Positions 31,144 to 58,628 of a DNA stretch of 64,000 bases are shown here, in pieces. Source of the stretch: an uncultured Acidobacteriota bacterium (GTDB lineage: Bacteria; Acidobacteriota; UBA6911); contig CAYYTC010000001.1 of assembly GCA_964474425.1 (NCBI GenBank), positions 26,481 through 90,480 of the forward strand, written 5' to 3'. Under the pieces are notes generated by a model. The model was not told the origin of the DNA. It was given only the letters and a program-made list of their open reading frames with translations, and ran no database searches. Every line of letters begins with the position of its first letter. Within the stretch, counting starts at the first letter, position 1. A program made the translations under genes and the position numbers.

Positions 31144-31189
31144 GGATCCATACCTGGCGGCGACTGGAAAGAGATATGATTGCCTGTAT

Positions 31190-38129: not shown

Positions 38130-38472
38130 GGACCCACAGGACCATGCGGGGCTTCTTCCCCAGTTCGGCGGCGAGATCCTCGACGCGACCGTATTTCATG
38201 CAGGCAGCCATGCAGTGCTTCACGCATGCCGGTTCAAGGTCCTCCCGGGTGAGATGCGGGCAAAGGACGCAGGTTTCGGTGGGAAACGGGAAATAGGACA
38301 GGTAGAGGCGGCCGTTGGGCAGCTTCTGTTCCGCCTCGAAGACCTTGATGCCGCGCACGCCGGGCGGATGGTTGTATTCCTGGGCACAGGCGATTTCGCA
38401 GCTGTGGCATCCTGTGCAGTATTCGTAATCGATCAGCAATCCGAATTCGGGCTTCTTTTCCATCCTATTCAT
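38125..38472 (-). CDS. 2x[4Fe-4S] ferredoxin-like electron-transfer subunit
   Basis: 115 aa. CTGCHSCEIAC and CVLCPHL...CVKHCMAAC cysteine clusters. 8-nt overlap with the upstream oxidoreductase gene. Confidence 0.7.
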   Translation of the reverse strand: MNRMEKKPEFGLLIDYEYCTGCHSCEIACAQEYNHPPGVRGIKVFEAEQKLPNGRLYLSYFPFPTETCVLCPHLTREDLEPACVKHCMAACMKYGRVEDLAAELGKKPRMVLWVP

Positions 38473-40927: not shown

Positions 40928-41007
40928 TCCATCACCTCCCAGATAGAATTTTCAGAATAGATGATCGGGGGGATAATTGAAACGGCAAACATATCGATAA
41001 TCTCAGA

Positions 41008-41067
41008 GCTCTGCCGGGGGACTCAAAGAGTTTGACAGCTCCGTATTTTATAACGCTGTAAAAACGC
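41008..41067. repeat. about 60-bp conserved intergenic element, copy A, upstream of the Mo-oxidoreductase operon
   Basis: gctctgccgggggactcaaagagtttgacagctccgtattt (41 nt) is identical to 47328-47368, followed by a related aacgctg(t/a)taaaaacgc. Confidence 0.6.
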
Positions 41068-41116
41068 GGAGTAACGCTGGTTCTTGAGGCGCTGGTTCCT
41101 GAGGCAGAGGTCGAGT

Positions 41117-41761
41117 TCAGCGCTTTTGTTTTTCCAGAAGAGCGCGGGCGATAGACACCGCGGAGCCGGCGTTTTCCCCATACCCGTCGGCCCCGATTTC
41201 ATCCGCATAAGCCTGGGTGACGGGCGCTCCGCCCACCAGGATCCTTACCCGGTGGCGAAGGCCTGCGCGGCTGAGCGCCTCGATGGTCCTTTTCATTTCC
41301 GGCAGTGTGACCGTTAGAAGAGCCGAGAGCGCGAGTATGTTCGCGTTGCTGTTCCCGACCGCCTCGACGAACTTCTCGGCCGGTACATCGATCCCAAGAT
41401 CGGTGACTTGAAAGCCTGCGCCTTCCAGCATGGAGCCGACCATGTTTTTGCCGATATCGTGCAGGTCCCCTTTCACGGTCCCGAGGACTACCCGCCCGGT
41501 CGGCTGCTCTCCGCGCGCCGCGAGCAGAGGGCGCAAAGGCTCCATCGCTGTTTTCATTGCGCGGGCGGCCAGCAGGATTTCCGGGATGAAGTATTCCTGG
41601 GCTTCAAAGCGCCTGCCGACCTCATCCATGGCCGGGATCATCCACCGGCCGATCAGCTCGGTGGGATTGGCGGATTCCTGCAGAGCTTCCTGGACAAGCT
41701 GCAGCGCCAGTTTGTCCTCGCCGTTAAGGATCGCATCATAAAGCCGGGACCTATCGGGCAT
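41117..41761 (-). CDS. cobalamin-binding (corrinoid) protein, B12-binding domain
   Basis: DxHxxG motif GDLHDIGKN plus GG at the Rossmann end. 214 aa with an N-terminal B12-binding-2 cap. Confidence 0.8.
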   Translation of the reverse strand: MPDRSRLYDAILNGEDKLALQLVQEALQESANPTELIGRWMIPAMDEVGRRFEAQEYFIPEILLAARAMKTAMEPLRPLLAARGEQPTGRVVLGTVKGDLHDIGKNMVGSMLEGAGFQVTDLGIDVPAEKFVEAVGNSNANILALSALLTVTLPEMKRTIEALSRAGLRHRVRILVGGAPVTQAYADEIGADGYGENAGSAVSIARALLEKQKR

Positions 41762-41954
41762 AATTTGTCGACTCCTTTGCGCATCCGGGCTTTGGCCGGA
41801 CCGCGGAAGAGTCTAGCACGCCGGGGAAACCAGGGGCAAACAGACTTGCCTGCTTTTCTCACAGTCGCCCTGCAGCAAATGAAGTCCGAACATCATGGCG
41901 GTTTTATGCGCATCCGTGCTATATAGACATATCTTTTTCGCATGGGAGTGTCGG

Positions 41955-42794
41955 ATGAGCGGAATACCTGTTTTGCACGTTGAGGCGGACTGCATCGCGC
42001 GCGGCTGGGAGGACTCCCTGGTGGAACTGTATCGGCGCGGTTGCGACATCCGCACGCAATATGACAAGGACGGAGATCCGCCGAGCAAGGACTGCACCAT
42101 GATCCTGACCATCGCCGATCCGCTCCGGGAACCCATGATCCACAAAGACTTTCCGGGCGGGCCGGTGGAGCTCCAGGAATATGTCCTGGAGGTGTGCGAA
42201 GGCATCAAGGACCACCTGGTGCGCGATCCCGGCGACCCGGCGGATACGCGCTGGGAGTACACCTATCACCGCCGGCTTTTCGCCTACGACGTGCCGGGCT
42301 TACGGCCTTTCGACCAGATCAATTTAATGTGCCGGAAACTGGCTGAAATCCCGCACACGCGGCGCGCTCAGGCGATAACCTGGAAAGTCTGGGAGGACAA
42401 CGACTGCTTCGATCCCGCCTGTCTTCAAAGCCTGTGGGGCCGCATCATCGAGGAAAACGGCGAATGGTTCCTCAGCTTCAACACTCGTTTCCGCTCCAAC
42501 GATGCCTACAAGGCCGCTTTTATGAACATATTCGCCCTGGTGCAGCTGCAGAAGCTGATGGCCGGCCGTATTGCCGAGATGTCGGGCAAAGAGATAAAAG
42601 TCGGGCGATATTGCCACATTGCGGACAGCTATCACCTTTACGGGTCGTATTTCAAAGATTTCGAAGGCCGGTTCCTCGGCGCTCTCGCGAAGCGCACCTT
42701 CGAGCAGCGCACCCTGCGGTACGAAGCGCTGCGCGGCATGATGGAGGAATCGCGGCCCTCGATCCTGGATAAGGCCAGGCGCATGGGAAGGTAA
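41955..42794 (+). CDS. thymidylate synthase (ThyA)-fold protein
   Basis: [26 protein letters not shown] aligns with E. coli [38 protein letters not shown] aligns with APCHAFFQFYV (catalytic Cys). NIFALVQL...[16 protein letters not shown] aligns with NIASYALL...GDTHLY. Start taken at MSGIPVLHV. Confidence 0.7.
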   Translation: [279 protein letters not shown]

Positions 42795-42883
42795 GGATTA
42801 AGAGCATCGGCGGGAGGTCGATCTTCTTGACTGGCCTTTTCCCGCCGACTATAGTAGCGGTTTTTTCAAAAGGAGGATTTCAG

Positions 42884-44095
42884 ATGTCCGGGCCACTGAC
42901 AGGCGTTCGCGTAGTGGAAATAACCATGTTTCAGCAGGGGCCGGTCGCCGGAACAAAACTGGCGGACCTCGGCGCCGACGTCATCAAAGTCGAACCCAAG
43001 GAGGGAGATCCTGCCCGCGGCTTTATGCGCCTGATCGGAGCCACGGTGGGCCTGAGAGGCGAAAACTATTACTTTGAAAGCAACAACCGCAACAAGCGCA
43101 GCATCGCGCTGGACCTCAAGTCGCCCCAGGGGAAAGAAATCTTCCTGAAGCTGATAGACAAGGCCGATGTCTTCCTGACGAATATGAGCATCGACGCGCC
43201 GATCAAAATCGGCCTCGGTCCCGAAGACCTGATCAAGCGGAACCCGCGCCTCATCTACGGCCATTCCTCGGGATGGGGAAGGAAGGGTCCTGCGGCCGGC
43301 GATCTATCTTTTGACTACACCGGCATTGCCCGTTCCGGTCTGATGATGTGCGCCGGCGAAAAGGGGAGCCCTCCGGGGCAAATGCTGCCCGGCCTGGGCG
43401 ACCAGATCGGCGCCTTAATGCTTGCCTGGGCAATCACGGCGGCTCTGTACGCCCGCGAGAAGACCGGCAAAGGCCAGTTGATCGATACATCGCTGATGGG
43501 CAGCATTATCGCCCTGGAAGGCCTCATCCTCGATGCTCCTGCGATGCTGGGACAGGAATACCCCAGGGAATGCCGGAACGAGGCGGGCAATCCGATGTAT
43601 AACCATTATCCGTGCCGCGACGGCAAATGGATTGCGGTCGCGCACCTGCAGCCGGACCGGTATTGGCCGGCCTTCTGCAAGGCCATGGGCCTTGAGCATC
43701 TGGAACACGATCCCAGGTTCCACACCATGGAAGCGCGCGGCCAGAATTCAAAGGAGCTTATCCGCGTTCTGGACGAGAAGTTTGCCGCCAAAACGCGCGA
43801 TGAGTGGCTTGAGCAGCTGAAGAAAGGAGGCTGCATCTGCACTCCTGTCCAGTCTCTTGCGGAAGTCTGCCAGGATCCCCAGGCAATGGCCAACCAATAC
43901 ATCATAGAAGTCGATCATCCTGTCTGGGGACGGCGGGTTCGGGAAGTCGGCTTTCCGTGGGACTTCAGTGAGACCCCTGCATCCTGGAGAAAGCCGGCGC
44001 CTCAACTGGGCGAGCACACGGAAGAGATTTTGCTGGAACTGGGATACAACAGGGAAGAAATCGGCCGCCTGAAAAGCTCCGGCGCAACCGTGTAG
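42884..44095 (+). CDS. family III CoA-transferase (CaiB/BaiF/FldA/HadA type)
   Basis: The ATG at 42884 has an AAAGGAGG ribosome-binding site. MSGPLTGVRVVEITMFQQGPVAGTKLADLGADVIKVEP is the characteristic N-terminus. Active-site Asp region present. Confidence 0.85.
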   Translation: MSGPLTGVRVVEITMFQQGPVAGTKLADLGADVIKVEPKEGDPARGFMRLIGATVGLRGENYYFESNNRNKRSIALDLKSPQGKEIFLKLIDKADVFLTNMSIDAPIKIGLGPEDLIKRNPRLIYGHSSGWGRKGPAAGDLSFDYTGIARSGLMMCAGEKGSPPGQMLPGLGDQIGALMLAWAITAALYAREKTGKGQLIDTSLMGSIIALEGLILDAPAMLGQEYPRECRNEAGNPMYNHYPCRDGKWIAVAHLQPDRYWPAFCKAMGLEHLEHDPRFHTMEARGQNSKELIRVLDEKFAAKTRDEWLEQLKKGGCICTPVQSLAEVCQDPQAMANQYIIEVDHPVWGRRVREVGFPWDFSETPASWRKPAPQLGEHTEEILLELGYNREEIGRLKSSGATV

Positions 44096-44107
44096 GAGCT
44101 TATAAGC

Positions 44108-44170
44108 GAACCACGAAATACACTAAATACTCAAAATTTACATTCGTGTAATTGGTGTATTTCGTGGTTT
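44108..44170. terminator. long stem-loop (15-bp perfect inverted repeat) between convergent genes
   Basis: gAACCACGAAATACAC ... GTGTATTTCGTGGTT followed by tgttcgtcttt. Confidence 0.4.
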
Positions 44171-44190
44171 GTTCGTCTTTCCGCAATCGC

Positions 44191-45474
44191 CTATTTCACG
44201 GATGGGATGATAATGCCGCCTGAGGGGAGAATCGTTACATCGGCCCGGGGCATTTTCTTCTGAGCTTCGCGGATCGCATCGTCGAGCGAGGAGGCATATC
44301 CGAAATTCATCAGCTCCACCTGCTCCCGTGTTAATCCTTCCGTCACGTGGACCACGTCGTACTGCTCCGACATTTCCTTGAACGGAACACCGAGCATGAA
44401 GAACGAAATACCGTAAGGTTTGATGCTGTCCGGGATATCGCCGTTCAGAAGTCGGCGATGGTATTCGTTGGCGCTTTTGGCGGCCGCCATCTGCTCGATG
44501 AGGGCCATCAGCGGGCCCGCCTGCTTTTGCCCAGCCACCCAGATGATCGTGGAGTCTGTCCTGGCGGCGCTCTTGGCGTTGAGCAGCGATTTCGTCGCCT
44601 GGACGCCGACTTCAAGAGGCGATGCGGACGTGATCACGACATCCGCCGGTTTCGGCAGGGAAACCACGTAGAGGGAGGCGGCGTGATCGCAGGCTTGCCG
44701 GTGCTCCTCGACGGGGTCTCCCGCAAAGACCCTGATGACCTGGTTGGTTTCGTTCAGGAGGAAATCGATTTTGAAGGCCAGACAGCCCAGGCGGGCTATT
44801 TCCACGATTTCTTCGTAATAGGGATTCCCTTCCAGGACATTCAGTTTGCAGCTTTTGTTGCGAAGCCAGTTGTAGTGGTGATCCCCGATGGTGCGGTAAG
44901 AGGCAACTCCAGGCATGATGATCTTGCAGCCGCCCCCGAATCCGGCATTGGGATGGGGCATGCAAGCCCCGATGCCCAGAACCAGATCGGCTTCGGCCAC
45001 ATGCCTGTTGATCTCGACCACCGTTCCGCGGCGGGTTTTGCCTATCCACACGTTTTCCGGCGACTGGGATTCGTGGATGTGGATACGGCCCGCGAGCCGG
45101 CGCACGGCTTCCGTCCCGATTTTCTTTTCAACCTGCTCCGGCGTCGGCGCGGGATGAGTTCCCCGGGCGCAGATGGCCGTAATCCGTTCGTCCGGCACCC
45201 CGGCCTTGTTCAGGCGGTTCAGGACCGCCGGGAGAGCCAGATAGGCGGGAGTCGGCCTCTGCATGTCATCGAAAAGCACCACCGTTCTCATTCCCGGACG
45301 GGCGAGCTTTTCAAGGGGCGCAGTCCCGATAGGGTTGTCGAGAGCGCGCTCGACCTCTTTGACGGGGTCCTCAACCAAAGGCGCAGGCGCGCAATCCCGG
45401 GAGCTGATCACGTTCCATTCCGCCGGCAGGGAGAAATTCATTCTACCGCCGCCGTAGTTCAAATAGTAGTTCAT
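44191..45474 (-). CDS. LarA-family (lactate-racemase-like, DUF2088) Ni-pincer-nucleotide-dependent racemase/epimerase homologue
   Basis: The ATG at 45474 has an AGGAAGAGGA ribosome-binding site; the track ORF to 45903 is a read-through. MNYYLNYGGGRMNFSLPAEW...GTHPAPTPEQ...MPHPNAGFGGGCKIIMPG with His residues in LarA-like positions. Confidence 0.8.
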   Translation of the reverse strand: MNYYLNYGGGRMNFSLPAEWNVISSRDCAPAPLVEDPVKEVERALDNPIGTAPLEKLARPGMRTVVLFDDMQRPTPAYLALPAVLNRLNKAGVPDERITAICARGTHPAPTPEQVEKKIGTEAVRRLAGRIHIHESQSPENVWIGKTRRGTVVEINRHVAEADLVLGIGACMPHPNAGFGGGCKIIMPGVASYRTIGDHHYNWLRNKSCKLNVLEGNPYYEEIVEIARLGCLAFKIDFLLNETNQVIRVFAGDPVEEHRQACDHAASLYVVSLPKPADVVITSASPLEVGVQATKSLLNAKSAARTDSTIIWVAGQKQAGPLMALIEQMAAAKSANEYHRRLLNGDIPDSIKPYGISFFMLGVPFKEMSEQYDVVHVTEGLTREQVELMNFGYASSLDDAIREAQKKMPRADVTILPSGGIIIPSVK

Positions 45475-45571
45475 GGTTCCTCTTCCTGAAATTGATATCG
45501 TCTTACAACTATGCCACGAATCCGCGCAAATTTCACGGGAATCCGGCCGGAAATCCCGGTTGGCGGGACGT

Positions 45572-46333
45572 CTATCCCAGGATTGCCGCTCCGACTGCGG
45601 CAGAAACCTGAGGCTCCTCGGGAACCAGTATTTTTGCGCCCAGCTCTGTTTCCAGCGTCCGCACGAGGCCGATGTCTTTGGCGCCCCCGCCGGTGACGGC
45701 GCAGTCGGGAGCCAGACCGAGGCGGACGATGAGGTTGACGATTTTTGCCGCCATCGCTTTGTGCACTCCCGCCAGGATATCCGCCGGGCCGGCGCCTTCG
45801 GCAATCCGCGAAACCGCTTCAGACTCGGCAAAGACCGCACATCCTGTGGTGAATTCGACCGGATTTGCAGACTCCAGGGACAGGGCGCCGATATCCGCGA
45901 CATTCATATGGAGAATCCGCGCGATGACCTGGAGAAACTTGCCGCTTCCGCCCGCGCACTTCTCGTTCTGAACAAAATTCATCACCTTGCCGTCGTTCCC
46001 CAGCTTAATCGCCCGGCTGAACTGGCTGCCGATGTCCACCACGGTCCGGGCCGAAGGGAAGAAATGAAAAATCCCGGCAGCGTGACAGGAGATGTCGGCA
46101 ACGGTCCGGTCGGCAAAATCAACCGCCCCGGCTCCCCAGCCTGTCGCCACCGTCGTTGAAATTTCCGCGCGGGAGAGGTTTGCCTTTTCGAGTGCGGCAT
46201 CCGAGACTTTCCGGGCCGATTCCGCGTAGTTACCGCCCGAAGGCACTGTGGCATGCGACATTAGGCCGGCATCTCCCACGACGGCCGCCTTCGCGAAACT
46301 GGAGCCTACATCGATGCCCAGGTTGTATTTCAT
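45572..46333 (-). CDS. BadF/BadG/BcrA/BcrD-type ATPase (HgdC/BcrD-like activator/electron-transfer subunit)
   Basis: 253 aa. Actin-fold ATPase GIDVGSSFAKA; cluster-binding motif NEKCAGGSGKF. Confidence 0.85.
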   Translation of the reverse strand: MKYNLGIDVGSSFAKAAVVGDAGLMSHATVPSGGNYAESARKVSDAALEKANLSRAEISTTVATGWGAGAVDFADRTVADISCHAAGIFHFFPSARTVVDIGSQFSRAIKLGNDGKVMNFVQNEKCAGGSGKFLQVIARILHMNVADIGALSLESANPVEFTTGCAVFAESEAVSRIAEGAGPADILAGVHKAMAAKIVNLIVRLGLAPDCAVTGGGAKDIGLVRTLETELGAKILVPEEPQVSAAVGAAILG

Positions 46334-46451
46334 GCCGCGGTTCCTATCCCCTATCTATATCTATACCGGCGAAAAACATCAAACGCAAGCATATGGGACC
46401 GGGATTGGCGGCCATGATCCTGCGGGAGGTCGATCCCGAATGGGTCCCGGA

Positions 46452-47306
46452 TCATTGGAAAAAGCTTGCTTCGCCCAGCTGCCGGGGCTTTGTGGCGAGT
46501 TTGCCGCCGGTCTTTACGGCCTTTTCGTACATCTCCTGCCCTATGAGTGCCGCTCCGAGAGCGCCCGTGATGAGCGGCTCGCGGGGAACCTTAACAGGGC
46601 AGCCGAATTTTGCCTCCAGCGCTTTCACCAGCCCGATATTTTTCGCTCCGCCGCCCGTTATGGCTACATCGGGCCTGATTTTGAGCTTGCTGACGAGAGC
46701 GAATATGCGCGTCGCGATAGCCTGGTGAATGCCCGCCACAAGGTTGGGGATGGACTCGCCGTCCGCCAGCTGCGAGATAACCTCCTGTTCGGCGAAAACA
46801 GTGCACGTGTTGCCGATAACGGCCGGTTTCTCGGCGGCCAGGGACAGTTCCCCGAGTTTTTCCAGGGGAATGCCGAGAGCTTCCGCAATGATTTCCAAAA
46901 AGCGACCCGTGCCGGCGGCGCATTTGTCATTCATGACGAAATCGACAACCTTGCCGTTTTCCAGGCGAATCCCTTTGCTGTCCTGGCCCCCGATGTCCAC
47001 TACGGTGTGCGCCGAGGGGAGGAGGCTCGACAGGCCCTTTGCGTGACAGGTGATCTCCGTAACCTGCCGGTCGGCAAACGGCACATTTATTCTTCCGTAA
47101 CCGGTTGAAACAACATAGGTTACATCGTCGAAAGATATCCCCGCCCGGAGCAGGGCTTCCTCCATCACCCGGTTGGCCAGTTTCCTGTGCTCGGGCCCCG
47201 TAGGTCCAATGATTGAGGACTCCTCGCCGCCGCCCAGGATGACGACCTTGGTCATCGTCGATCCGATATCCACGCCGGCGAAGTAACTGTTGGCAACCTG
47301 CATCAT
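46452..47306 (-). CDS. BadF/BadG/BcrA/BcrD-type ATPase, second paralogue
   Basis: 284 aa. GVDIGSTMTKV; NDKCAAGTGRF. Clearly a different paralogue from 45572..46333. Confidence 0.85.
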   Translation of the reverse strand: MMQVANSYFAGVDIGSTMTKVVILGGGEESSIIGPTGPEHRKLANRVMEEALLRAGISFDDVTYVVSTGYGRINVPFADRQVTEITCHAKGLSSLLPSAHTVVDIGGQDSKGIRLENGKVVDFVMNDKCAAGTGRFLEIIAEALGIPLEKLGELSLAAEKPAVIGNTCTVFAEQEVISQLADGESIPNLVAGIHQAIATRIFALVSKLKIRPDVAITGGGAKNIGLVKALEAKFGCPVKVPREPLITGALGAALIGQEMYEKAVKTGGKLATKPRQLGEASFFQ

Positions 47307-47327
47307 AAATACATTGGTAAATCCCCG

Positions 47328-47387
47328 GCTCTGCCGGGGGACTCAAAGAGTTTGACAGCTCCGTATTTCGAAACGCTGATAAAAACG
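47328..47387. repeat. about 60-bp conserved intergenic element, copy B, immediately upstream of the ATPase/activator genes
   Basis: Identical 41-nt core to 41008-41048. It lies 22 nt upstream of the 46452..47306 start codon. Confidence 0.6.
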
Positions 47388-47550
47388 CTGACAACCGATT
47401 TGTTCGGCGAGGATCGGAAGCGCCCCATCGGCTTTTGCCCGCGTAGGTCAGCGTTCAAGACCGGCGTAACTCCTCCAACCGCTTTGAGGGGTTCAAATCT
47501 TTCAAGCCTCCGGCTTTGCCGGAAGTACCTGACCCGACACGGAGCTGCTA

Positions 47551-48876
47551 TTACTTCCCTTTCCTGGCCGCCAGGGTCTCGATGAACGCGTCGATCCTGT
47601 TATGCGTATCGGCCTCATTGTAGGAGCTGATGTCGACGATGTCCCCCTCCATGATAAGAGTGGGAACGTCGCCGTAGACCTTGTTCAGCACCTGGGCCTG
47701 CTGGACGATGCCCGCGTGCCAGCTGCGGCAGGAATATGCGGAGTGGAATACCACTCCGTCGCACCGGTAGTCTTCCATATATTCGATGATGCGCTCGACC
47801 TTCGGCAGCGAACCCGGCCGCTTGCGCGCCTTGTCGAACCAGCGGGTCCAGAGACGCACCCATCTCCATGCGAGGTGTTCGAGGGGATCGCTGGTTTTGG
47901 GCAGGTCGAGGCGTTCAATCTTCTCGGCGTTGCGATAGGTGACTTCAACCGGGAAAACGGCTCCCTTATCGTTGAAGTACTGGAAATCGCCCAGAGCAAA
48001 CCAGGAAGGCAGGCCGGCGCCCCAGACGAGCCGGTATTTCTCGTCCTCGGCCACGCCTTTTTTCTGAGCAATCTTTTCCTGGAGCTCGCTATAGAGTTCT
48101 TTATAAAAATCGAGGGCTTCCTGGGTGCCCAGATTGAAAGTCAGCGGCACCATCGTGTTCATGGCGTCGCCCGTATCCATAGGGGTCGGAATGGCTTTCC
48201 GCAGCTCATAGCTGTCGATAAACATGTCCCAGGTCCGGTCGGTCAAATCGACCAGCGCGGCGAGCCGGTCCCAGTCCATTTTTTTCCCCGTGTGCTTTTC
48301 ACAGAATCGCACCAGGCTCCGGAGTTCTTCGGTGGCGTACTTTACGTAAAGCTTCTCCTGCTCCTTGTGATCGATGGCCGGATCCCAGGGAGGATAGTAC
48401 ATGGTCCCCATCCAGACAGGGACGTCCTGGAGATAGTGCTGGGTTGCCTGGGGCCACTTTATCCTCGGGTCGCACAACTGCTGGGCGCTGCCGATAATCA
48501 TATCGGGCCTTCCCATCCCCCCCCACGGAGTATTCGGGGGAATCTCCCCTCCCAGTTCCTCGCGCCACATGTCGAAGCCGATGGTGCATGTCGCATAGGT
48601 GCACAGCGAGCGGGAGAAATTTTCAGCCTCCGCCTTCTGGAGAAATTTCTCCGCGTCTCTCTTGGCGGAACAAACGCCGGCGAAATTCTCGCCCCAGGCC
48701 GGGACGATATCCATGGCGCGGACGATTTCGTCCTGAGCGTTGTTGATATAGGTGTAGGCTACCTTCTTGCCTTCTTCCCTGGCTTTCAAAGTTGCGGCCA
48801 TGTTGGTCCTGCCGAATTTCCCTGCTTTCCCCGCCGCCTGTGTCGCCAGTGGTCTTGGTTTTCTGATTTCAGCCAT
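47551..48876 (-). CDS. BcrB/BzdO/HgdB-like subunit of a benzoyl-CoA reductase / 2-hydroxyacyl-CoA dehydratase family enzyme
   Basis: 441 aa. Conserved Cys/His pattern; C-terminus NRIDAFIETLAARKGK shared with the 50301 paralogue. Confidence 0.8.
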   Translation of the reverse strand: MAEIRKPRPLATQAAGKAGKFGRTNMAATLKAREEGKKVAYTYINNAQDEIVRAMDIVPAWGENFAGVCSAKRDAEKFLQKAEAENFSRSLCTYATCTIGFDMWREELGGEIPPNTPWGGMGRPDMIIGSAQQLCDPRIKWPQATQHYLQDVPVWMGTMYYPPWDPAIDHKEQEKLYVKYATEELRSLVRFCEKHTGKKMDWDRLAALVDLTDRTWDMFIDSYELRKAIPTPMDTGDAMNTMVPLTFNLGTQEALDFYKELYSELQEKIAQKKGVAEDEKYRLVWGAGLPSWFALGDFQYFNDKGAVFPVEVTYRNAEKIERLDLPKTSDPLEHLAWRWVRLWTRWFDKARKRPGSLPKVERIIEYMEDYRCDGVVFHSAYSCRSWHAGIVQQAQVLNKVYGDVPTLIMEGDIVDISSYNEADTHNRIDAFIETLAARKGK

Positions 48877-48888
48877 GTATCTCTCCCG

Positions 48889-50046
48889 TTACGCAATCAT
48901 TTCCAGGAATGCTTCTATCCGGGTTTTCACCCGGCCGAGGCTGGACGTGTTGTATTCATCCTCAATATAGAGGACCGGCGTCCCGGCGGTTTCAATGAAG
49001 CTTTTTATCGCGGGGACTTCAAAGCCGTATGGATCGCAATATTTGTAGATGAAAAGGATCGCCCCGTTCACCCGGAAGTCTTTGATGTACTGCCTCATGT
49101 GGCCGAAGCGCGCTTCGAGATTTTCCGAATAGGTGTTTCCCCCGGAGACGAACGTCGTGGGGAATTTCAATTTTTTGAGGTACCTCTCGGTGATGCCCCG
49201 GACCGGATCGTCTGTCGGATCCACGTCGCCCCAGTACATTTTGCTGCCTGTCGAAAGGTCGTCCATGACCATGCACGCACCGGCATCTTCTATGGCCCTG
49301 ACGATCGCCACGTCGTCGATCTGGTCCCCCACGAGCATGATCCGCGCCGTTGGACTGCCGTTTGCGCGAACCCGATTTTTTGCTTCTTGGGTAACGCTTT
49401 TTATCAGGGCGGTGGACTCGTCGACGGGGAGGCTCATGGAGGCTATGAGGACCTTCATCATTTCGGCGCCGGAGATGCGGGGCGCATCTTCTTTCCGAAG
49501 CTCGTAAAGCTCTCTCATGGCCCGCCGGTTTTCGTTATGAGCGCGGACGGCTTCCGTGAGTGCCTGATCGGTGATGCTTTTCCCCGTGAACTTTTCCAGA
49601 GTCCTCAGGAAAATTCTCAGGATCTCGTCCGTAAACTCGATCGATGGATCGTCCGTGACATGAGGGTAGTTGATAAAATGCCAGTACGGGAGTTCCAGTT
49701 TTTCACTCCACACATCAAAGGTTCTTTCGACGCTGTCGCATTGATGCGGCAATACCATGCCGTCCAGGTAAGCGTATCTCCCCTTGAGAGCCGCATCGAA
49801 GGCATTCCGGACAAAGGGGCATATCATCGTCTCCATATAGGCATCGGCCTTCGTCACCGGTTCCGATACGTAGCCCTTCAGCCGGACCGGCACGACGCCC
49901 GCCGCCGTGAGGATCTCCACGGGGCAGAGAGCGGACATATACCCGATGACTTTTCTGCCCGAGCTCCTCAGTTCCCGGGCTCTCGACCCATAGTCGGAAT
50001 AGTATTTTTCAACCGTTGCCAATCCGCCCGATTGCGCTTCTCCCAT
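48889..50046 (-). CDS. BcrC/BzdN/HgdA-like subunit of the same enzyme family
   Basis: The ATG at 50046 has a GGAGGTG ribosome-binding site; the track ORF to 50274 is a read-through. 385 aa, MGEAQSGGLATVEKYYSDYGSRAREL... Confidence 0.8.
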   Translation of the reverse strand: MGEAQSGGLATVEKYYSDYGSRARELRSSGRKVIGYMSALCPVEILTAAGVVPVRLKGYVSEPVTKADAYMETMICPFVRNAFDAALKGRYAYLDGMVLPHQCDSVERTFDVWSEKLELPYWHFINYPHVTDDPSIEFTDEILRIFLRTLEKFTGKSITDQALTEAVRAHNENRRAMRELYELRKEDAPRISGAEMMKVLIASMSLPVDESTALIKSVTQEAKNRVRANGSPTARIMLVGDQIDDVAIVRAIEDAGACMVMDDLSTGSKMYWGDVDPTDDPVRGITERYLKKLKFPTTFVSGGNTYSENLEARFGHMRQYIKDFRVNGAILFIYKYCDPYGFEVPAIKSFIETAGTPVLYIEDEYNTSSLGRVKTRIEAFLEMIA

Positions 50047-50300
50047 CTTTTCACCTCCCCGGCTGGCCGCCGATATGAAACTGCGCATGCCGAAAAAGAC
50101 TAAGTGTAACATTGGAAGCAGCAAGCCAAAAGCCAGAAGACAGCATGAAGAAATTTGACATTCGGGCTCGAGGCAAGCCATATTTGGGATTGAGGACAGG
50201 TGTGTCCGATGAACAGCAACCCCATAGATACAGGAGCGAGGGAGTGAAAACGGAACAAAGCAAGCCGCAGGCATTCAAGAAAATCCAAGCAACCAACAAG

Positions 50301-51503
50301 ATGAAAGAAATCATGGAGCAGCATTTCCGCGAGCTGGATGAAGCCGCCAGGACCCAAAGCAGCAAGATCGCCTGGTGCACCAGCGTCGGGCCCGCCGAAC
50401 TGTTGCGCGCAGCGGGATTCCTGGTTTTCTTTCCGGAAAATCACGGCGCCATGCTCGGATCGACCCGCATGGCTACGGATCTTATTCCTTTAGCCAATGC
50501 CCTGGGCTACTCTCCCGACATCTGTTCGTATCTGACCAGCGATATCGGGTCCTACATCAAGGGCGAAAGCCCCATAAGCAAGGCGTACCCCGGCATCAGC
50601 GGCCCGCCCCGGCCCGACGTGCTGGTTTACAACACCAACCAGTGCCGCGATGTGCAGGACTGGTACAACTTCTATGCGCGGGAATTCAAGGTGCCCGTTA
50701 TCGGCGTTGAGACGCACCGCGGCGTCGGCGACATTACCAAGGCGCATGTGGATTCCATCTCAGCGCAGATCCAGGGGCTTGTGCCGAAGCTGGAGGAGAT
50801 CTCCGGCCGGAAACTCGATTACGAGGAATTCAGGCGCGTGGTCGGCCTTTCCCGTCAATGCACGGACCTGTGGAAACAGGTGCTGCAGATCGCCTCGAAC
50901 GTTCCGTCGCCCTTGACATTCTTTGACGGCACGATCCAGATGGGACCCGCGGTGGTTCTCCGCGGCGAGCAGAGGGCGGTCGATTATTACAAACTCCTTC
51001 TTGCGGAACTGCAGCAGCGGGTCAAGGACGGGGTTGCCGCCATCGACAATGAGAGGTTCCGCCTATACTGGGAAGGCATGCCGATCTGGGGCAAGCTGCG
51101 GGAACTGTCCACTCAGTTTGCGAGCCTGGATACCTGCGTTCTGGCTTCGACCTACTGCAGCAGCTGGGTTTTCCCCGCTCTGGACCCGGACGATCCCTTC
51201 GACAGCATGGCGCGCGCTTACATCGAGCTGTTCATCGTTCGCAATGAAGCGTACAAGGAGAACTATTTCGAGAGAGAGATCGATCTGTACAAGATCGACG
51301 GCATGATTTTTCACGATGCAAAAACCTGCCCCAACAATTCCAACAACCGTTACGGCCTGCCGGAACGTCTCTCCCAAAACTACAGCATGCCGATGCTCGT
51401 GCTGCACGGGGACCTGAACGACCTGCGCTGCTACTCGGAAGAACAGGCCCGCACCAACATCGAGGCGTTCATCGAGCAGCTGGCGGAGAGGAAGGGCCGT
51501 TGA
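50301..51503 (+). CDS. second BcrB/HgdB-like subunit paralogue
   Basis: The ATG at 50301 gives MKEIMEQHFRELDEAARTQSSKIAWCTS... C-terminus NIEAFIEQLAERKGR. 401 aa. Confidence 0.8.
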   Translation: MKEIMEQHFRELDEAARTQSSKIAWCTSVGPAELLRAAGFLVFFPENHGAMLGSTRMATDLIPLANALGYSPDICSYLTSDIGSYIKGESPISKAYPGISGPPRPDVLVYNTNQCRDVQDWYNFYAREFKVPVIGVETHRGVGDITKAHVDSISAQIQGLVPKLEEISGRKLDYEEFRRVVGLSRQCTDLWKQVLQIASNVPSPLTFFDGTIQMGPAVVLRGEQRAVDYYKLLLAELQQRVKDGVAAIDNERFRLYWEGMPIWGKLRELSTQFASLDTCVLASTYCSSWVFPALDPDDPFDSMARAYIELFIVRNEAYKENYFEREIDLYKIDGMIFHDAKTCPNNSNNRYGLPERLSQNYSMPMLVLHGDLNDLRCYSEEQARTNIEAFIEQLAERKGR

Positions 51504-52291
51504 TTTCCGACGCGATTTACGGCGGTGTGGATGTCGGGGCTTCGGCGACCAAGGTCGCCATCATCGACTCCCGGAAAGAGCTCCTGGCTTCCGACGTGAG
51601 GAAGACCGGGGTCAATTTTGAAACCTGCGCGCAGGAGGCCATGGATGCGGCTTTGGCCTCCTGCGGCAAAAGCCTGTCCGATCTCGCGCGCATCCTCTCG
51701 ACCGGCTACGGCCGCCACAACGTCGCTTTCGCGCAGGCAACCCGGACCGAGATCGCCTGCCACTCCCGCGCCGCACACCACTTCTTCCCGCGCAAAATTG
51801 CGGTCGTTGATGTCGGAGGCCAGGATAATAAGGTCATTCATGTGGACGCCGAAGGCAGGCGCATCAATTTCAAGATGAACCGCAAATGCGCTGCGGGAAC
51901 GGGCGCCTTCCTCGAAGAGGTTGCCCAGCGCATGGACGTGCCGATGGACCAGATTGAACCCCTGGCGCGCCAGGCCCAACACATCGTCCACATGGGAAGC
52001 TTTTGCACCGTATTTACCAAAACGGAAATTTTGGCCCATTTGCGCGCGGGCGAGAAGGTGCCTGAGATCGTGGCCGGGCTCATCGAATCGGTCGTGAAGC
52101 GGATTATAGAAATGGATCCGCTCTCGGGCGATGTCGTCATCAGCGGCGGGGTGGTGGCCCACAATCCGGTGCTCGCGGAAATGCTGTCCCAGCGTTTGGG
52201 CCGCCCGGTAAACATTTTGCCTCACGCGCAGCTGGCAGGCGCTTTTGGAGCCGCCCTGCTTGCCGCCGATGATCGGGAGAATGAACCGTAG
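51500..52291 (+). CDS. BadF/BcrA/HgdC-type ATPase (third activator paralogue)
   Basis: The TTG start overlaps the upstream stop (GTTGA) behind a GGAGAGGA ribosome-binding site. GVDVGASATKV; NRKCAAGTGAF. 263 aa. Confidence 0.8.
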   Translation: MISDAIYGGVDVGASATKVAIIDSRKELLASDVRKTGVNFETCAQEAMDAALASCGKSLSDLARILSTGYGRHNVAFAQATRTEIACHSRAAHHFFPRKIAVVDVGGQDNKVIHVDAEGRRINFKMNRKCAAGTGAFLEEVAQRMDVPMDQIEPLARQAQHIVHMGSFCTVFTKTEILAHLRAGEKVPEIVAGLIESVVKRIIEMDPLSGDVVISGGVVAHNPVLAEMLSQRLGRPVNILPHAQLAGAFGAALLAADDRENEP

Positions 52292-52300
52292 GGGCGGCCT

Positions 52301-53578
52301 TTATGCAGTAAGTTTGGGAAGCGCGCTCGAACCTTGAGGCATGAGGTAGATTTTCTTCCCTCCCCTGGCGAGGGCCATCTCCAGAGCTTCCTCCACGGTC
52401 CTGGCGGTCTTCAGCGCAGTCCGCTTCAGCAGCGAAGGATCCCCGCCGCCCACAATGATGATGTTCCACTTTTCTGCGGCGGTGCACATGTAATAGCTCA
52501 CGTATTTGGCCACCGTGAAGAGACTGCGGACCTCTTTTTCCCTCTCCGCGTTCGTGCCGCATCCCAGGAATATCGTGTTTGCGTCCGGCGGCCCGATGCC
52601 TTCCGAGCAGTCGCTCAGGATGATCATGGTGCCGCCCGGCTTCGTCGCTTCCTGCGTATGGTAGATGCCCTTGCCGGTCTGGCAGACGTCGATATCCTTC
52701 GGGTACCCGCCCTGCGACGAGATCGTGATGTCGGCAAGCTCTTGGATCGGCACGGCATAGAGATCGTCCACGATTTTTCGTCCCACGGCGTGCGCCTGCT
52801 CATAGTGCCCGCAAACGGCCTGCGCGATTTTTCCGTCGTGTCCCATGATCACGTTGAACATGAACGAAGGATTCACAATCGAGGCGACTTCGAGCATGTC
52901 CAGGTGCATCGGGTTATCCTGGATATTCCCGCTCCTGACTTCAGGACGTTGTTGTCCCCTTTCATCCATCACCATCAGGTGATTGTGCTGGATGGATTCG
53001 ATGGAGGAAATCCCGGGCAGAATCGACTTCTTCCCTCCTCCCCAGCCGACCCACGGGTGATAGGTGCAGCAGCCGGTCAGGATCAGGTGGTCGGCCTCCG
53101 CCGCAATTCTGTTGATGGTCACGGGTGTTCCGCGGCTGGTTTTGCCCAGAGGGACCAGGTTGGCCTTATCCATGCAGTCATGGTCAATGATTCCAAAACG
53201 CTCCAATAGCGCCTTACCCAGCTGCTTTTCGTGCTCCTCCGGAGTCTGACCGCGGTGGTAGCCGAGAGCGCACAGGAAGCGTATATCCTTGTCCCTGACA
53301 CCCGCTTCATTCAGTTCGTTCACGATATGCGGCAGATAGACGTGCATTCTCTGCCAGGCGCGGGTCACGTCGGATACGACAACGCAGACGGTCTGACCGG
53401 GCTTGACGATCTCCTTCAGCCTTGGAGCGCCGATCGGTCTGGCGAGCGCGGCCAGGATCGCTTCATCTTCGGTCATTGTGGAGGGGGGCACCTCCTTGAG
53501 GATCACGCCCAGCAGGTTTTCCTCCGGGACGGATACATCTACGTAGCCATGGCCGAGCTTCATTTTTATGGTCTTCAT
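52301..53578 (-). CDS. LarA-family racemase/epimerase homologue, second copy
   Basis: The ATG at 53578 has an AAGGAG ribosome-binding site. MKTIKMKLGHGYVDVSVPEEN...CALGYHRGQTPEEH...HPWVGWGGGKKSILPG. Confidence 0.8.
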   Translation of the reverse strand: MKTIKMKLGHGYVDVSVPEENLLGVILKEVPPSTMTEDEAILAALARPIGAPRLKEIVKPGQTVCVVVSDVTRAWQRMHVYLPHIVNELNEAGVRDKDIRFLCALGYHRGQTPEEHEKQLGKALLERFGIIDHDCMDKANLVPLGKTSRGTPVTINRIAAEADHLILTGCCTYHPWVGWGGGKKSILPGISSIESIQHNHLMVMDERGQQRPEVRSGNIQDNPMHLDMLEVASIVNPSFMFNVIMGHDGKIAQAVCGHYEQAHAVGRKIVDDLYAVPIQELADITISSQGGYPKDIDVCQTGKGIYHTQEATKPGGTMIILSDCSEGIGPPDANTIFLGCGTNAEREKEVRSLFTVAKYVSYYMCTAAEKWNIIIVGGGDPSLLKRTALKTARTVEEALEMALARGGKKIYLMPQGSSALPKLTA

Positions 53579-53816
53579 GCATGGGCTCCTTCTGTGACCG
53601 GCATATGGGAAGGGGGAAAATGCCACGCATGGACGCGAATGTGAGAACTTCCCGGAAGAGAACCCATGAAATCCGTGGCGGTCGCCTGCATTGCATCGGA
53701 GACCTCAGAGCCTGTCACATCTGGAATTTTACACTGAAAACAGGGAATCGGGGCCATAAAATCGGGCCTCTCCCTGCGCGGTGTGAAGCCCGTTTAATAT
53801 TTTGCAGCGGGCACCG

Positions 53817-54806
53817 TCACCGAAGCACGATGCTGCCGGACCCGGTGCGCACCTCCACCAGGTTGCCGCCGCCGCGAAACTTGCCGCTGGCCACCTTCGA
53901 GCTCAGCGCGCCGTTAAAATCCGATGCTCTTTCGAAATTTATCCGGCCCGAGGCTGTGCGGGCATTGAGATCAAAAGCCGCGTCCGGCGGCACATCGAGC
54001 GCGACGCTTCCGGATGAGGCATGGATGCTCCAATTGCCCGCGGGATTTCCGCCGGCCTTGATGCTTCCGCTTCCCGTGCTTGCGCGAAGGGATCCTGAGA
54101 TTCCGGAAATTTCGATGCTGCCCGAACCGGTGCGGGCAGCCACGTCCATGGCCGAACCCTGTTCAGCGGCCGTCAGGTCCAGCGTTATGGCGCCGCTACC
54201 GGTGCTTGCGCTGACGGATCCGGCAATCCCCATAGCCTTGATGGAACCGCTGCCGGTTCTCACCTCGAGCCTTCCGGTCAAACTGCGGGCTTCGATGCCG
54301 CCCGAGCCGGCCTGTGCGTTCACATCACCCCGGATATTGTCTATGTTGATGGATCCGGAGCCGGTAGCAAGTTCCACGCGTCCCTGCAATCCATAAATCC
54401 GCTGGCTTCCGGACCCGGCACGGCTGCTCAAGCTCGTTTCGGGAGGCGTTTCGATCTCGTATCTGATTGAGACATTGTTCCTGTAGTCGTCCTCCTCGAT
54501 CCGGCCGACGCGGATCACATTGCCGTTCTGTTCGATCGGCGGCTGCGATTCCAGGTACTTGATCTTCTCTTCCGCGGTCGCGTGCCGGTCATCCCGGGCT
54601 TTGATTATGCCCCGAATCCTGAGGAAGCCGAAATTTCCGGCCTTTACATCAACACTCCCGGATCCGGTTATGACATCCAGGGTGACCGGGCCGGCCACAG
54701 TCAGAGTGCGCTCAAATGTTCCTTCCACGGCCGGGAATGCCGCCAGGCATCCCGTAAGGCTGGTCAAAGCTATAATTGTTGAGATGCGCAACAGGTAGTG
54801 TCTCAT
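53817..54806 (-). CDS. lipoprotein with a DUF4097 beta-repeat domain
   Basis: Lipobox LTSLTGC. Repeated TGSGSI(D/E)(V/I) strands. 329 aa. Confidence 0.65.
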   Translation of the reverse strand: MRHYLLRISTIIALTSLTGCLAAFPAVEGTFERTLTVAGPVTLDVITGSGSVDVKAGNFGFLRIRGIIKARDDRHATAEEKIKYLESQPPIEQNGNVIRVGRIEEDDYRNNVSIRYEIETPPETSLSSRAGSGSQRIYGLQGRVELATGSGSINIDNIRGDVNAQAGSGGIEARSLTGRLEVRTGSGSIKAMGIAGSVSASTGSGAITLDLTAAEQGSAMDVAARTGSGSIEISGISGSLRASTGSGSIKAGGNPAGNWSIHASSGSVALDVPPDAAFDLNARTASGRINFERASDFNGALSSKVASGKFRGGGNLVEVRTGSGSIVLR

Positions 54807-55022
54807 GGCGAATAGCCTCCCTGCCCGTTAAAACGAAATAGCCGGCCCGGATGTTCCATCCCGTTTTGCAATTGTTTCAGGATCGGCCCGGCCGGCCACC
54901 GTTAGCGTGGCGGTCCGGCGGATCCCTGTGATATATTGGCCATCGGGTTGCCGGGGGCCAGGTTCCATACAGGCATCCCCAGTTGAAAGATTTTTGGAAA
55001 TTAATTCATCGGGAGGAATGCA

Positions 55023-56234
55023 ATGTCAGAAGGACCGCTCTCAGGGATCAGGGTCATAGAGATTTCCACATTTCAGCAGGGACCGGTGGCCGGCATGAGG
55101 CTGGGGGACCTGGGGGCCGACGTGATCAAGATCGAAACGAAGGACGGGGATCCCGCAAGGCGCCACTTCCGGACGATCGAGGCCGAATTCAACGTCAAGG
55201 GTTATAACTATTACTTCGAACATGCCAACCGCAACAAGCGGGGCATCGTCCTGGACATGAAAAAGAAGGAGGGCATGGATGTCTTCCTCAAGCTCATCGA
55301 TACGGCGGACGTTTTCCTGAACAACATGAGCATTGCGGCCCCAATCCGTCTCGGGATCGGTCCTGAGGCGCTTCTTGCACGCAATCCGCGGCTCATCTAC
55401 GCGCAGGCATCCGGCTGGGGACGCAAAGGTCCGTCCGCCAACAGCCTTTCCTTCGACTACACCGGCATCGCGCGGTCCGGCCTGATGATGGCGGCCGGAG
55501 AAGACCAGACGCCGCCCTGCATGATGCTTCCCGGCCTCGGCGACGAGATGGGCGGGCTCGTAAGCGCCTGGGGCGTAAGCCTGGCGCTCTTCGCGCGCGA
55601 GCGGACGGGCAAAGGCCAGGTGGTCGACACCTCGCTGATGGGCAGCGTCGTCGCCCTGATCGGGCACCTCATGTCCGGCACGGCAATGCTGAAGCAGGAA
55701 TTTCACAGATTTGTGAGAACAAAAATGGGAAATCCCATGTACAACCACTATCGCTGCAAAGACGACAAGTGGATTGCCATCGCCCACCTGGACCCCGACC
55801 GGTGGTGGGCAAAGGTTTGCGGCGCCCTGGGAGTCGAGAATTTGATTAATGACCCGAGATTCAGCACTTTTGCCGCCCGTTCCGCCAACCGCGAAGAACT
55901 GATTGCCATTTTTGACGGGCTTTTTGCCAGCAAGACCCGGGACGAATGGATGAAGATCCTGGAAGAACACGGCTGCATCTATACTCCGGTTCAAAACATC
56001 CCCGACGTTGTGGAGGACCCGCAGGTGCTGGCGAACAATTACATGATCAACATCGATCACCCTGTTCACGGGCCCACAAAAACCATGGGTTTCCCCTGGG
56101 ACCTCAGCGAAACGCCGGCGTCCTGGAGAAGGAAAGCGCCGAATCTGGGCGAGCACACGGAAGAGGTGCTGCTCGAAATCGGCTACAGCAGGGAGGGAAT
56201 CGCAAAGCTCAGAGAAGCCGGGGCAATCCAGTAG
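55023..56234 (+). CDS. family III CoA-transferase, second copy
   Basis: MSEGPLSGIRVIEISTFQQGPVAGMRLGDLGADVIKIETKDGDP is paralogous to 42884..44095. Confidence 0.85.
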   Translation: MSEGPLSGIRVIEISTFQQGPVAGMRLGDLGADVIKIETKDGDPARRHFRTIEAEFNVKGYNYYFEHANRNKRGIVLDMKKKEGMDVFLKLIDTADVFLNNMSIAAPIRLGIGPEALLARNPRLIYAQASGWGRKGPSANSLSFDYTGIARSGLMMAAGEDQTPPCMMLPGLGDEMGGLVSAWGVSLALFARERTGKGQVVDTSLMGSVVALIGHLMSGTAMLKQEFHRFVRTKMGNPMYNHYRCKDDKWIAIAHLDPDRWWAKVCGALGVENLINDPRFSTFAARSANREELIAIFDGLFASKTRDEWMKILEEHGCIYTPVQNIPDVVEDPQVLANNYMINIDHPVHGPTKTMGFPWDLSETPASWRRKAPNLGEHTEEVLLEIGYSREGIAKLREAGAIQ

Positions 56235-56300
56235 ATCGGGCTGCCCGTTCGCGAGCCGCTATTTCCACAGAACACCCACTTTTCCTTTTAAGGAGCTATT

Positions 56301-58352: not shown

Positions 58353-58354
58353 AA

Positions 58355-58448
58355 AAGATGGGGACAGTCACCTGTGTCCCCATTCCTACAAAAAGCAGGG
58401 ACGATTTACCAATCGTGGAATGGGGACACAGGTGACTGTCCCCATCTT
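58355..58448. repeat. perfect 32-bp inverted repeat separated by 30 bp, directly after the acyl-CoA synthetase stop
   Basis: 58355-58386 aagatggggacagtcacctgtgtccccattcc is the exact reverse complement of 58417-58448. Each copy is also an internal GGGGACA(N8)TGTCCCC hairpin. Confidence 0.7.
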
Positions 58449-58628
58449 TGTCCCCATCTTTCAACTTATTCCCTTCAATTCTCTTATTGAACGCCTGGGA
58501 TTGAACGCGGTTCGGGCGATGGGGGACAAGCTGTCAAGCGAGATATAGCAGGAAGAGCTGCTGGCGATATTTGGACACCCGCAACACCGCATCAATTCCC
58601 CGTGGCATAAGGATATAGATTTCGCTGA

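Follow-up and report, generated by a model that had tools for sequence, protein, structure and literature searches.

The 64,000-nucleotide stretch analysed here (the window), from an uncultured Acidobacteriota bacterium of the UBA6911 lineage, is a chromosomal segment of ~58% G+C whose nearest genome match is an uncultured Acidobacteriota metagenome-assembled genome (MAG). It carries two homologues of LarA, the racemase whose cofactor is the nickel-pincer nucleotide (NPN), referred to hereafter as LarA1 (98% identical in the nearest MAG) and LarA2. Both lie among genes for HGD-D proteins of the 2-hydroxyacyl-CoA dehydratase (HAD) and benzoyl-CoA reductase (BCR) family, for ATPases of the activase type and for CoA-transferases, arranged as follows:

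42827-44095 (+): CoAT1, family III CoA-transferase (Pfam CoA_transf_3, 1.8e-117)
44191-45474 (-): LarA1, 427 aa (Pfam Lar_N and LarA_C)
45572-46333 (-): ATPase_c, activase-type (Pfam BcrAD_BadFG, 4.6e-48)
46452-47306 (-): ATPase_b, activase-type (Pfam BcrAD_BadFG, 1.3e-66)
47551-48876 (-): alpha-type HGD-D protein (BzdO/HadB-like), 441 aa, part of an inserted module
48889-50046 (-): beta-type HGD-D protein (BzdN/HadC-like), 385 aa, part of the inserted module
50047-50243: divergent intergenic region of 197 bp that separates the inserted module from the HadB-like gene, bounded by refined start codons
50244-51503 (+): HadB-like, alpha-type HGD-D protein, 419 aa (Pfam HGD-D; start refined with orthologues)
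51500-52291 (+): ATPase_a, acyl-CoA dehydratase activase-type (Pfam BcrAD_BadFG, 6.1e-52)
52301-53578 (-): LarA2, 425 aa (Pfam Lar_N and LarA_C)
55023-56234 (+): CoAT2, second family III CoA-transferase (Pfam, 5.6e-115)
56301-58352 (+): ACD, fused ADP-forming acyl-CoA synthetase (Pfam CoA_binding, Succ_CoA_lig and ATP-grasp_5)

The initial annotation had described both LarA genes as convergent with an activator gene, each at the end of a BCR/Hgd-type module. The first point holds for LarA2, which faces ATPase_a with the two stop codons only 9 bp apart (52292-52300), whereas LarA1 closes a run of genes on its own strand (beta, alpha, ATPase_b, ATPase_c, LarA1), lies 97 bp downstream of ATPase_c and converges, across a gap of 95 bp, with CoAT1. 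As for the modules, two are indeed present but differ in kind, one being a four-gene set of alpha, beta and two ATPases on the minus strand and the other an alpha-only HGD-D gene on the plus strand, overlapped by 4 bp by the gene for its one ATPase (ATPase_a). No terminator-like structure is seen in the 9 bp between the ATPase_a and LarA2 stops; either the two transcripts overlap, or they must terminate within the gene that faces them.

LarA1 and LarA2 as members of the LarA superfamily

That both genes encode LarA homologues, as first annotated, is borne out by Pfam (Lar_N at E=3.6e-52 and LarA_C at 1.2e-08 for LarA1; 1.9e-73 and 5.4e-14 for LarA2) and by full-length alignments to PDB entries, with Mar2 (2.2e-51) and LarA (9.2e-44) as top matches of LarA1 and Mar2 (9.9e-69) as that of LarA2. 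The start ATGs at 45474 and 53578 are preceded by ribosome-binding sites (GGAAGAGGA and AGAAGGAG, respectively) and give proteins of 427 and 425 aa, equal to the orthologue lengths; the longer mechanical open reading frames (ORFs), to 45903 and 53626, overlap upstream sequence. At 25-26% identity to each other, LarA1 and LarA2 cannot be the products of a recent duplication, and we take them to be two anciently diverged racemase homologues.

In the numbering of L. plantarum LarA, used throughout, Asp72, Arg75, His108, His174, Lys184, His200, Gln295 and Lys298 are kept in both proteins, and neither 30 LarA1 orthologues nor distant LarA1-type proteins vary at these positions. In characterised enzymes Lys184 tethers the cofactor, His200 is a nickel ligand, His108 and His174 are catalytic, and Arg75, Gln295 and Lys298 bind the substrate carboxylate (PMC11770544, PMC11851776). 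These residues and the two-domain Lar_N/LarA_C architecture over the full length place both proteins in the LarA superfamily (PMC7583248, PMC11770544). They differ from its characterised members in overall identity, which is only 25-35%, and in Tyr294, which is lost through a one-residue deletion in all LarA1-type proteins and replaced by Cys in LarA2 and its orthologues. This tyrosine forms a hydrogen bond to the 2-hydroxyl group and was reported to be important for cofactor stability and retention in Isosphaera pallida LarA (PMC11851776).

Neither protein reaches the cut-off of any curated racemase family (NF033504 for lactate, NF052593 and NF052595 for malate, NF052525 for LarAH10). For LarA1 the best NCBIfam match is malate racemase LarAH6, at 276 bits against a cut-off of 500, followed by racemase models at 241/540 and 237/460; LarA2 scores best with NPN_LarAH10 (450 bits against 540), followed by 381/500 and 293/460. 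The curated families nearest to both are nonetheless all NPN racemases. The initial annotation had asked whether the cofactor-binding Lys and His residues are present and whether the proteins fall with non-racemase relatives; since the tethering lysine is kept and the nearest curated families are NPN racemases, the doubts that it had raised on both counts do not apply. A malate racemase, as the top PDB match to Mar2 would have it, was ruled out, given the scores under cut-off and the absence of the malate-type His/Gln-Lys pair. LarA2 is closest to the LarAH10 family of hydrophobic 2-hydroxy-acid racemases. Around LarA1, 50%-identity representatives were searched exhaustively, and no more than three full-length clusters came out at 40-47% identity (>=346 bits), beyond which matches drop to <=39% identity and <=258 bits. 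This gap indicates that LarA1-type proteins form a compact, separate subfamily, for which the one-residue deletion at Tyr294 would serve as the mark.

Substrate specificity has been assigned to positions 175, 176, 358 and 359 (PMC11770544). These are P, W, Y and Y in LarA2, and P, N (Y in the clade), F and F in LarA1, where the assignment is tentative. The C-terminal specificity loop was anchored on group 10 sequences and on the residue table of the supplement to the 2020 study, because MAFFT, when used to align the alpha-14 loop with L. plantarum LarA, contradicted the published structure-based table. Read in this way, the residues differ from the patterns of lactate, malate, 2-hydroxyglutarate and gluconate enzymes, and match, tentatively for LarA1, that of the racemases for hydrophobic 2-hydroxy acids, which carry F or Y at 358 and with which both proteins share an aromatic residue there. 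The substrates proposed in the initial annotation, phenyllactate and 2-hydroxyisocaproate among them, fit the hydrophobic and aromatic side chains at these positions. Racemase activity is a prediction for both proteins, and the conserved Arg75, Gln295 and Lys298 argue for a free acid as its substrate.

Gene neighbourhoods of LarA1 and LarA2

A genome scan with LarA1 returned 22 loci, all of them from Acidobacteriota MAGs and each from a different GTDB species representative, with LarA1 identities of 68-98%; neighbours were counted by mapping the window's proteins, and two extra proteins from relatives, onto these loci. The most constant neighbour of LarA1 is CoAT1, which adjoins it in 21/21 assessable loci. 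A HadB-like gene lies within 10 kb of LarA1 in 20/22 loci, in 19 of which ATPase_a was detected beside it; ACD is present in at least 16/22, and an ApbA/PanE-type reductase gene stands between the HadB-like gene and LarA1 in 13/22. LarA2 was found in 8/22 loci, being followed in seven of these by a gene for an Ldh_2-family dehydrogenase, which the window's lineage lacks. CoAT2 (62% identical to CoAT1) adjoins LarA2 divergently in four loci (L007-L009 and L011).

From these counts the ancestral layout can be reconstructed as ACD, activase, HadB-like gene and, where present, ApbA gene on one strand, LarA1 pointing away from them on the other, and CoAT1 converging with LarA1. Adjacency in the LarA1 clade survives local insertions and replacements, and the cluster is kept across a clade of uncultured soil, peat and sediment Acidobacteriota of which UBA6911 is one member. 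LarA1 has as its conserved partner the alpha-only HadB-like enzyme rather than the four-gene module that lies directly upstream of it in the window.

This module (45572-50046, -) is present in only 2/22 Acidobacteriota genomes and occupies the position held by ApbA in relatives. We regard it as a later, lineage-specific insertion of a widely distributed HAD/BCR-family enzyme that, judging from its position, replaced the ApbA gene. All 120 matches listed for its alpha subunit are 74-95% identical, and Acidobacteriota, Syntrophorhabdaceae and other MAGs are among their sources, which suggests either horizontal spread or very strong constraint. Four non-Acidobacteriota loci (two from Syntrophorhabdaceae MAGs, two unassigned) carry module orthologues at 78-81% identity. 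The genes beside these orthologues resemble those for 4-hydroxybenzoyl-CoA reductase or for aryl-CoA ligases, or encode an IorA-like oxidoreductase accompanied by an IclR regulator; LarA is not nearby in any of the four.

Such neighbours suit an alternative in which the HGD-D enzymes of the cluster are ATP-driven reductases, BCR-like or double-cubane-like, acting on unsaturated or aromatic acyl-CoA, with the racemases serving some other step of aromatic or amino-acid breakdown. The composition of the module points the same way, as it combines alpha and beta HGD-D subunits with two different BcrAD/BadFG ATPases like the Bzd-type BCR, and its top PDB matches are BzdN for beta (1.9e-57) and BzdO for alpha (4.5e-22, with HadB at 7.7e-16). 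BzdNOPQ likewise has an alpha subunit with three catalytic [4Fe-4S] cysteines, and in BzdN six cysteines, Cys36/73/100/263/293/327, bind the [8Fe-9S] cluster (PMC11971306). Unlike BzdN, the beta subunit of the module keeps only Cys73, Cys100 and Cys327, both in the window and in four orthologues, with Ser, Ser and Phe (Ile or Leu in relatives) at the other three positions; this is the pattern of HadC. Together with the alpha subunit, which keeps its three, the module has three cluster cysteines in each of its two subunits.

Scores against the bzdN, bzdO and bzdQ equivalogs are far under cut-off (204/454, 96/449 and 175/380 bits), the beta subunit reaches 204/350 bits with the double-cubane protein (DCCP) model, and in fact none of the HGD-D proteins here reaches an equivalog cut-off for BCR, HAD or double-cubane proteins. 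A benzoyl-CoA reductase identity of the module was ruled out on the Cys pattern and these cut-offs. With three of six cysteines kept, the beta subunit is therefore dehydratase-like and not that of a canonical benzoyl-CoA reductase, and the module as a whole is a hybrid, BCR-like in subunit composition and dehydratase-like in cluster content. As the HadC-like pattern recurs in every member checked, and as the conserved partner of LarA1 finds its best match in a dehydratase alpha subunit, we consider the reductase explanation quite improbable. An 833 aa ORF (47602-50103, +), antisense to the two HGD-D genes of the module, was rejected as a shadow ORF, having no Pfam match and a third-position G+C of 0.56 compared to ~0.70-0.75 in neighbouring real genes. 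Shadow ORFs of this kind are typical of high-G+C DNA.

The HadB-like protein itself matches the HadB alpha subunit best among PDB entries (7.5e-49), and all three cluster-binding cysteines align, while its NCBIfam HadB score is 214 bits against a cut-off of 750. A double-cubane protein was excluded for this gene (NF040772 at 52/350 bits, no DCCP match in the PDB). We see in it a putative catalytic subunit for an oxygen-sensitive enzyme of the 2-hydroxyacyl-CoA dehydratase type, and it stands without a beta-subunit gene of its own in 18/20 of the relatives that carry it. All three ATPases pass the 125-bit cut-off of TIGR00241 (ATPase_a with 217 bits, ATPase_b with 268) and conserve the two bridging cysteines of the KCAAG and CTVF motifs; ATPase_c is 44% identical to ATPase_b. 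The CoA-transferases are closest, by NCBIfam and PDB, to dicarboxylate-type enzymes (SUGCT, the top PDB match of CoAT1 at 9.3e-54, and formyl-CoA transferase). ACD matches ADP-forming ligases in NCBIfam, under cut-off, and is predicted to yield ATP from acyl-CoA.

Outside the clade, metagenomes scanned with distant LarA1-type sequences yielded 58 loci, and HGD-D genes lie near the LarA1-type gene in three of them. In L069 (57% identity) a convergent beta/alpha/activase operon is found 1.6 kb from the LarA gene, and in L074 and L075 (43-44% identity) the order larA-dctPQM-beta-alpha is kept on one strand. Counted with the Acidobacteriota clade, L069 on the one hand and L074/L075 on the other show that the link between LarA1-type and HGD-D genes recurs in at least three lineages, though it is not universal. 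No activase gene is present within the fetched flanks of L074 and L075; upstream of the larA run lie a 2-oxo-acid oxidoreductase gene in L074 and beta-oxidation genes in L075. The same-strand runs (L074 2558-13877, +; L075 1954-17575, +) also include a deacetylase-family gene, on contigs of ~45% G+C. The L075 contig also carries archaeal-style thiolase/DUF35 genes and a thermosome-type chaperonin gene, the latter suggesting that its source is an archaeon. In the largest clade of LarA1-like metagenome sequences (P0361-like; 44-48% identical to LarA1) TRAP transporter genes precede larA, with genes for an IorA-like 2-oxo-acid:ferredoxin oxidoreductase and ACD in several loci and for an acyl-CoA ligase in one. 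Such contexts again indicate that carboxylates are taken up, 2-oxo acids oxidised and CoA esters involved. LarA2-like genes (60-62% identity) from Myxococcota and Proteobacteria MAGs have as neighbours a member of the enoyl-CoA hydratase family and a gene for a zinc alcohol dehydrogenase.

Four further genes of the window border or interrupt the cluster:

38465-40927 (-): molybdopterin oxidoreductase, 820 aa (far under cut-off in each of its best matches, PhsA, DMSO-reductase type II and Fdh)
41117-41761 (-): methyltransferase-type corrinoid protein, MtgC/MtbC-like (under cut-off)
41895-42794 (+): divergent thymidylate-synthase-like (ThyA-like) gene (Pfam Thymidylat_synt at only 1.6e-06)
53817-54806 (-): DUF4097 gene

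The corrinoid protein and molybdopterin oxidoreductase genes (38465-41761) are kept as neighbours of the cluster in many relatives. The ThyA-like gene, 32 bp upstream of CoAT1 and on the same strand, keeps this position in most Acidobacteriota loci; its top NCBIfam match is the methanogen-type ThyA (88 bits, cut-off 175). The DUF4097 gene lies between LarA2 and CoAT2, adjoining LarA2 in L005 as well, though not in more distant relatives. Three of these neighbours (ThyA-like gene, corrinoid protein, molybdopterin oxidoreductase) have no obvious link to the cluster and yet match its genes, or nearly so, in synteny across the clade, so that conservation of the cluster may in part reflect shared ancestry.

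One could go further and regard the LarA genes as stand-alone racemases, used for instance on lactate or malate, whose proximity to HGD-D genes is inherited gene order with no pathway behind it. That the 22 genome loci belong without exception to one phylum-level clade, that LarA2-like genes elsewhere have no HGD-D neighbours and that malate racemase Mar2 is the top PDB match of both proteins would all be expected on such an account, as would the equal synteny just described. It does not explain why LarA1-type and HGD-D genes are again found close together in two unrelated lineages, in one of them in a same-strand, operon-like order, nor why seven gene families of the cluster fit a single pathway; the Mar and LarA cut-offs of NCBIfam are, moreover, widely missed. 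We therefore think it unlikely.

Elsewhere in the window, dnaA, dnaN, recF, gyrB and gyrA form a replication-origin set at 22002-31215 (-), which places the cluster ~15-25 kb from the probable oriC. A histidine ammonia-lyase gene (8639-10183, +; NCBIfam hutH at 670 bits, cut-off 539) is preceded by a 335 aa ORF (7666-8673), the only ORF of >=250 aa in the window without a Pfam or NCBIfam match. Several LiaF/toastrack membrane proteins (DUF4097, DUF2154) are encoded at 2883-6635 (+), and an ECF-type sigma factor gene lies at 1725-2342. Across 41700-58500, scans for promoters (5 promoter-like sites, 6.3 expected) and terminators (24 terminator-like sites, 17.6 +/- 4.8 expected) were not informative, and the single sigma-70-like match in the divergent region 50047-50243, at 50155-50184 (+), is not above chance for that region. 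A riboswitch or other RNA element was ruled out, as nothing in the whole window matches Rfam at gathering thresholds; no tRNA genes were found in it either.

A predicted pathway for 2-hydroxy acids

On balance we lean towards reading LarA1 and LarA2 as NPN 2-hydroxy-acid racemases that belong to a conserved catabolic cluster of Acidobacteriota and feed a dehydratase pathway. The cluster points to an undescribed fermentation of both mirror forms of 2-hydroxy acids. In this pathway a hydrophobic 2-hydroxy acid, aromatic or branched or linear aliphatic, would be imported, or else arise from the 2-oxo acid through reductases of the ApbA/PanE and Ldh_2 types, which are present in most relatives. 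LarA1, LarA2 or both would interconvert its D- and L-forms, and the paired family III CoA-transferases CoAT1 and CoAT2 would form the (R)-2-hydroxyacyl-CoA. This could then be dehydrated to the enoyl-CoA by the HadB-like [4Fe-4S] enzyme, once activated by the ATP-dependent activase, and an acyl-CoA end product would finally be converted by ACD to the acid with formation of ATP. The families, catalytic residues, Cys patterns and gene order described above are direct observations; the class of substrate, dehydration rather than reduction, and the direction of the pathway are predicted from them.

The Had, Fld, Hgd and Lcd dehydratases are stereospecific for (R)-2-hydroxyacyl-CoA, and in the acrylate pathway a racemase is needed ahead of the (R)-specific dehydratase. 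The logic of a racemase serving a dehydratase is thus not new, as the acrylate pathway provides a physiological precedent. The initial annotation had proposed that the two LarA proteins feed an (R)-specific dehydratase, and part of this stands, given the HGD-D/activase link in 20/22 genomes, its recurrence in two further lineages and the CoA-transferase in 21/21 loci; what changes is the partner, which is the HadB-like enzyme and not the upstream module. Conservation in the clade and recurrence elsewhere thus lend the racemase-feeds-dehydratase idea the support of comparative genomics, although they do not prove it.

Several observations, beyond the shared synteny of unrelated neighbours, weigh against this reading. 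Known 2-hydroxyacyl-CoA dehydratases are alpha/beta heterodimers, and we know of no described alpha-only member of the dehydratase/BCR family with an activase of its own, so that the HadB-like enzyme might do different chemistry. The dicarboxylate-type likeness of the CoA-transferases fits hydrophobic substrates poorly, and no enoyl-CoA reductase (acyl-CoA dehydrogenase/Etf) is encoded in the cluster. HGD-D neighbours are absent both from the Myxococcota and Proteobacteria loci with LarA2-like genes and from the largest, P0361-like clade of LarA1-type genes. The loss of Tyr294 from both LarA proteins is a weak point as well. A further one concerns the cofactor: in agreement with the initial annotation, which had seen no larB, larC or larE, none of the corresponding Pfam families occurs in any ORF of >=250 aa within the 64 kb window, and a crude scan of the window and the fetched loci with larB/larC/larE motifs gave only two antisense chance matches.

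Loss of Tyr294 across the LarA1-type subfamily, along with changes at positions 109 and 183, could also be taken to mean that these proteins epimerise 2-hydroxyacyl-CoA thioesters, or carry out a non-racemising hydride transfer, instead of racemising free acids. The constant pairing of LarA1 with a CoA-transferase or ligase would agree with this, as would the acrylate-pathway clusters, in which epimerisation takes place at the level of the CoA ester (PMC8914356). The binders of the free carboxylate (Arg75, Gln295 and Lys298) and both catalytic histidines are, however, invariant, and that the genes are so often linked to TRAP carboxylate transporters likewise speaks for a free acid; we hold this possibility to be very remote.

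Within the preferred reading, of racemases that feed a dehydratase, a bolder version can be formulated, which we put forward tentatively and with considerable doubt. LarA1-type proteins may be the dedicated entry module of an unrecognised fermentation of D- and L-forms of aromatic or branched 2-hydroxy acids, found in widespread Acidobacteriota and some archaea. At its core would stand a radical 2-hydroxyacyl-CoA dehydratase of a new kind, built from alpha subunits only and probably homodimeric, with a single activase and ACD-coupled ATP formation.

Relation to known systems and significance

Amino-acid-fermenting Clostridia possess the dehydratase systems HadA/HadI/HadBC and FldA/FldI/FldBC; the structure of HadBC is deposited as 3O3M. 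The cluster resembles these systems in its family III CoA-transferase, its HGD-D protein with three cysteines and its ATP-dependent BcrAD/BadFG activase. It differs in that the conserved enzyme is of the alpha type only, that ACD is linked to it and that the host belongs to the Acidobacteriota and not the Firmicutes; moreover, a racemase would here replace or supplement the stereospecific (R)-2-hydroxy-acid dehydrogenase.

Lactate is fermented through the acrylate pathway by Megasphaera elsdenii, Anaerotignum propionicum and Coprococcus catus. There, as in the pathway proposed here, both enantiomers must be brought into the (R)-form, (R)-lactoyl-CoA in that case, which the radical dehydratase specifically requires. 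In the lap clusters as described, however, the gene for the inversion is that of a putative lactoyl-CoA epimerase, and LarA is encoded in a separate lct cluster (PMC8914356), whereas the LarA genes in the window lie inside the dehydratase cluster and their predicted substrates are larger and hydrophobic.

The association between LarA and 2-hydroxyacyl-CoA dehydratases, which the initial annotation had called not well documented, is indeed described by no paper in the literature searched. Among the contexts of the 25 LarAH groups compiled in 2020, there is none with HGD-D, activase and CoA-transferase genes together, and no association with COG1924 or COG1775 is given (PMC7583248); the LarA genes described here, unlike those, stand beside genes of all three kinds. 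The genome paper on UBA6911 Acidobacteriota mentions none of these genes. The proteins belong to known superfamilies, and it is their arrangement and the LarA1-type subfamily that are new.

About half of the LarA superfamily is without a predicted function, and even for characterised members the physiological roles are unclear (PMC11770544). One uncharacterised LarA subfamily gains a concrete and testable role from its repeated association with enzymes of the radical dehydratase type, with CoA-transferases and TRAP transporters, and with 2-oxo-acid oxidoreductases. The alpha-only HadB-like enzyme and the hybrid module are unstudied members of the BCR/HAD family and could show how this family shifts between dehydration and reduction. 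For the organisms themselves, our observations suggest that a clade of uncultured soil, peat and sediment Acidobacteriota would carry a Stickland-like fermentation of 2-hydroxy acids that is absent from the genome surveys of this group.

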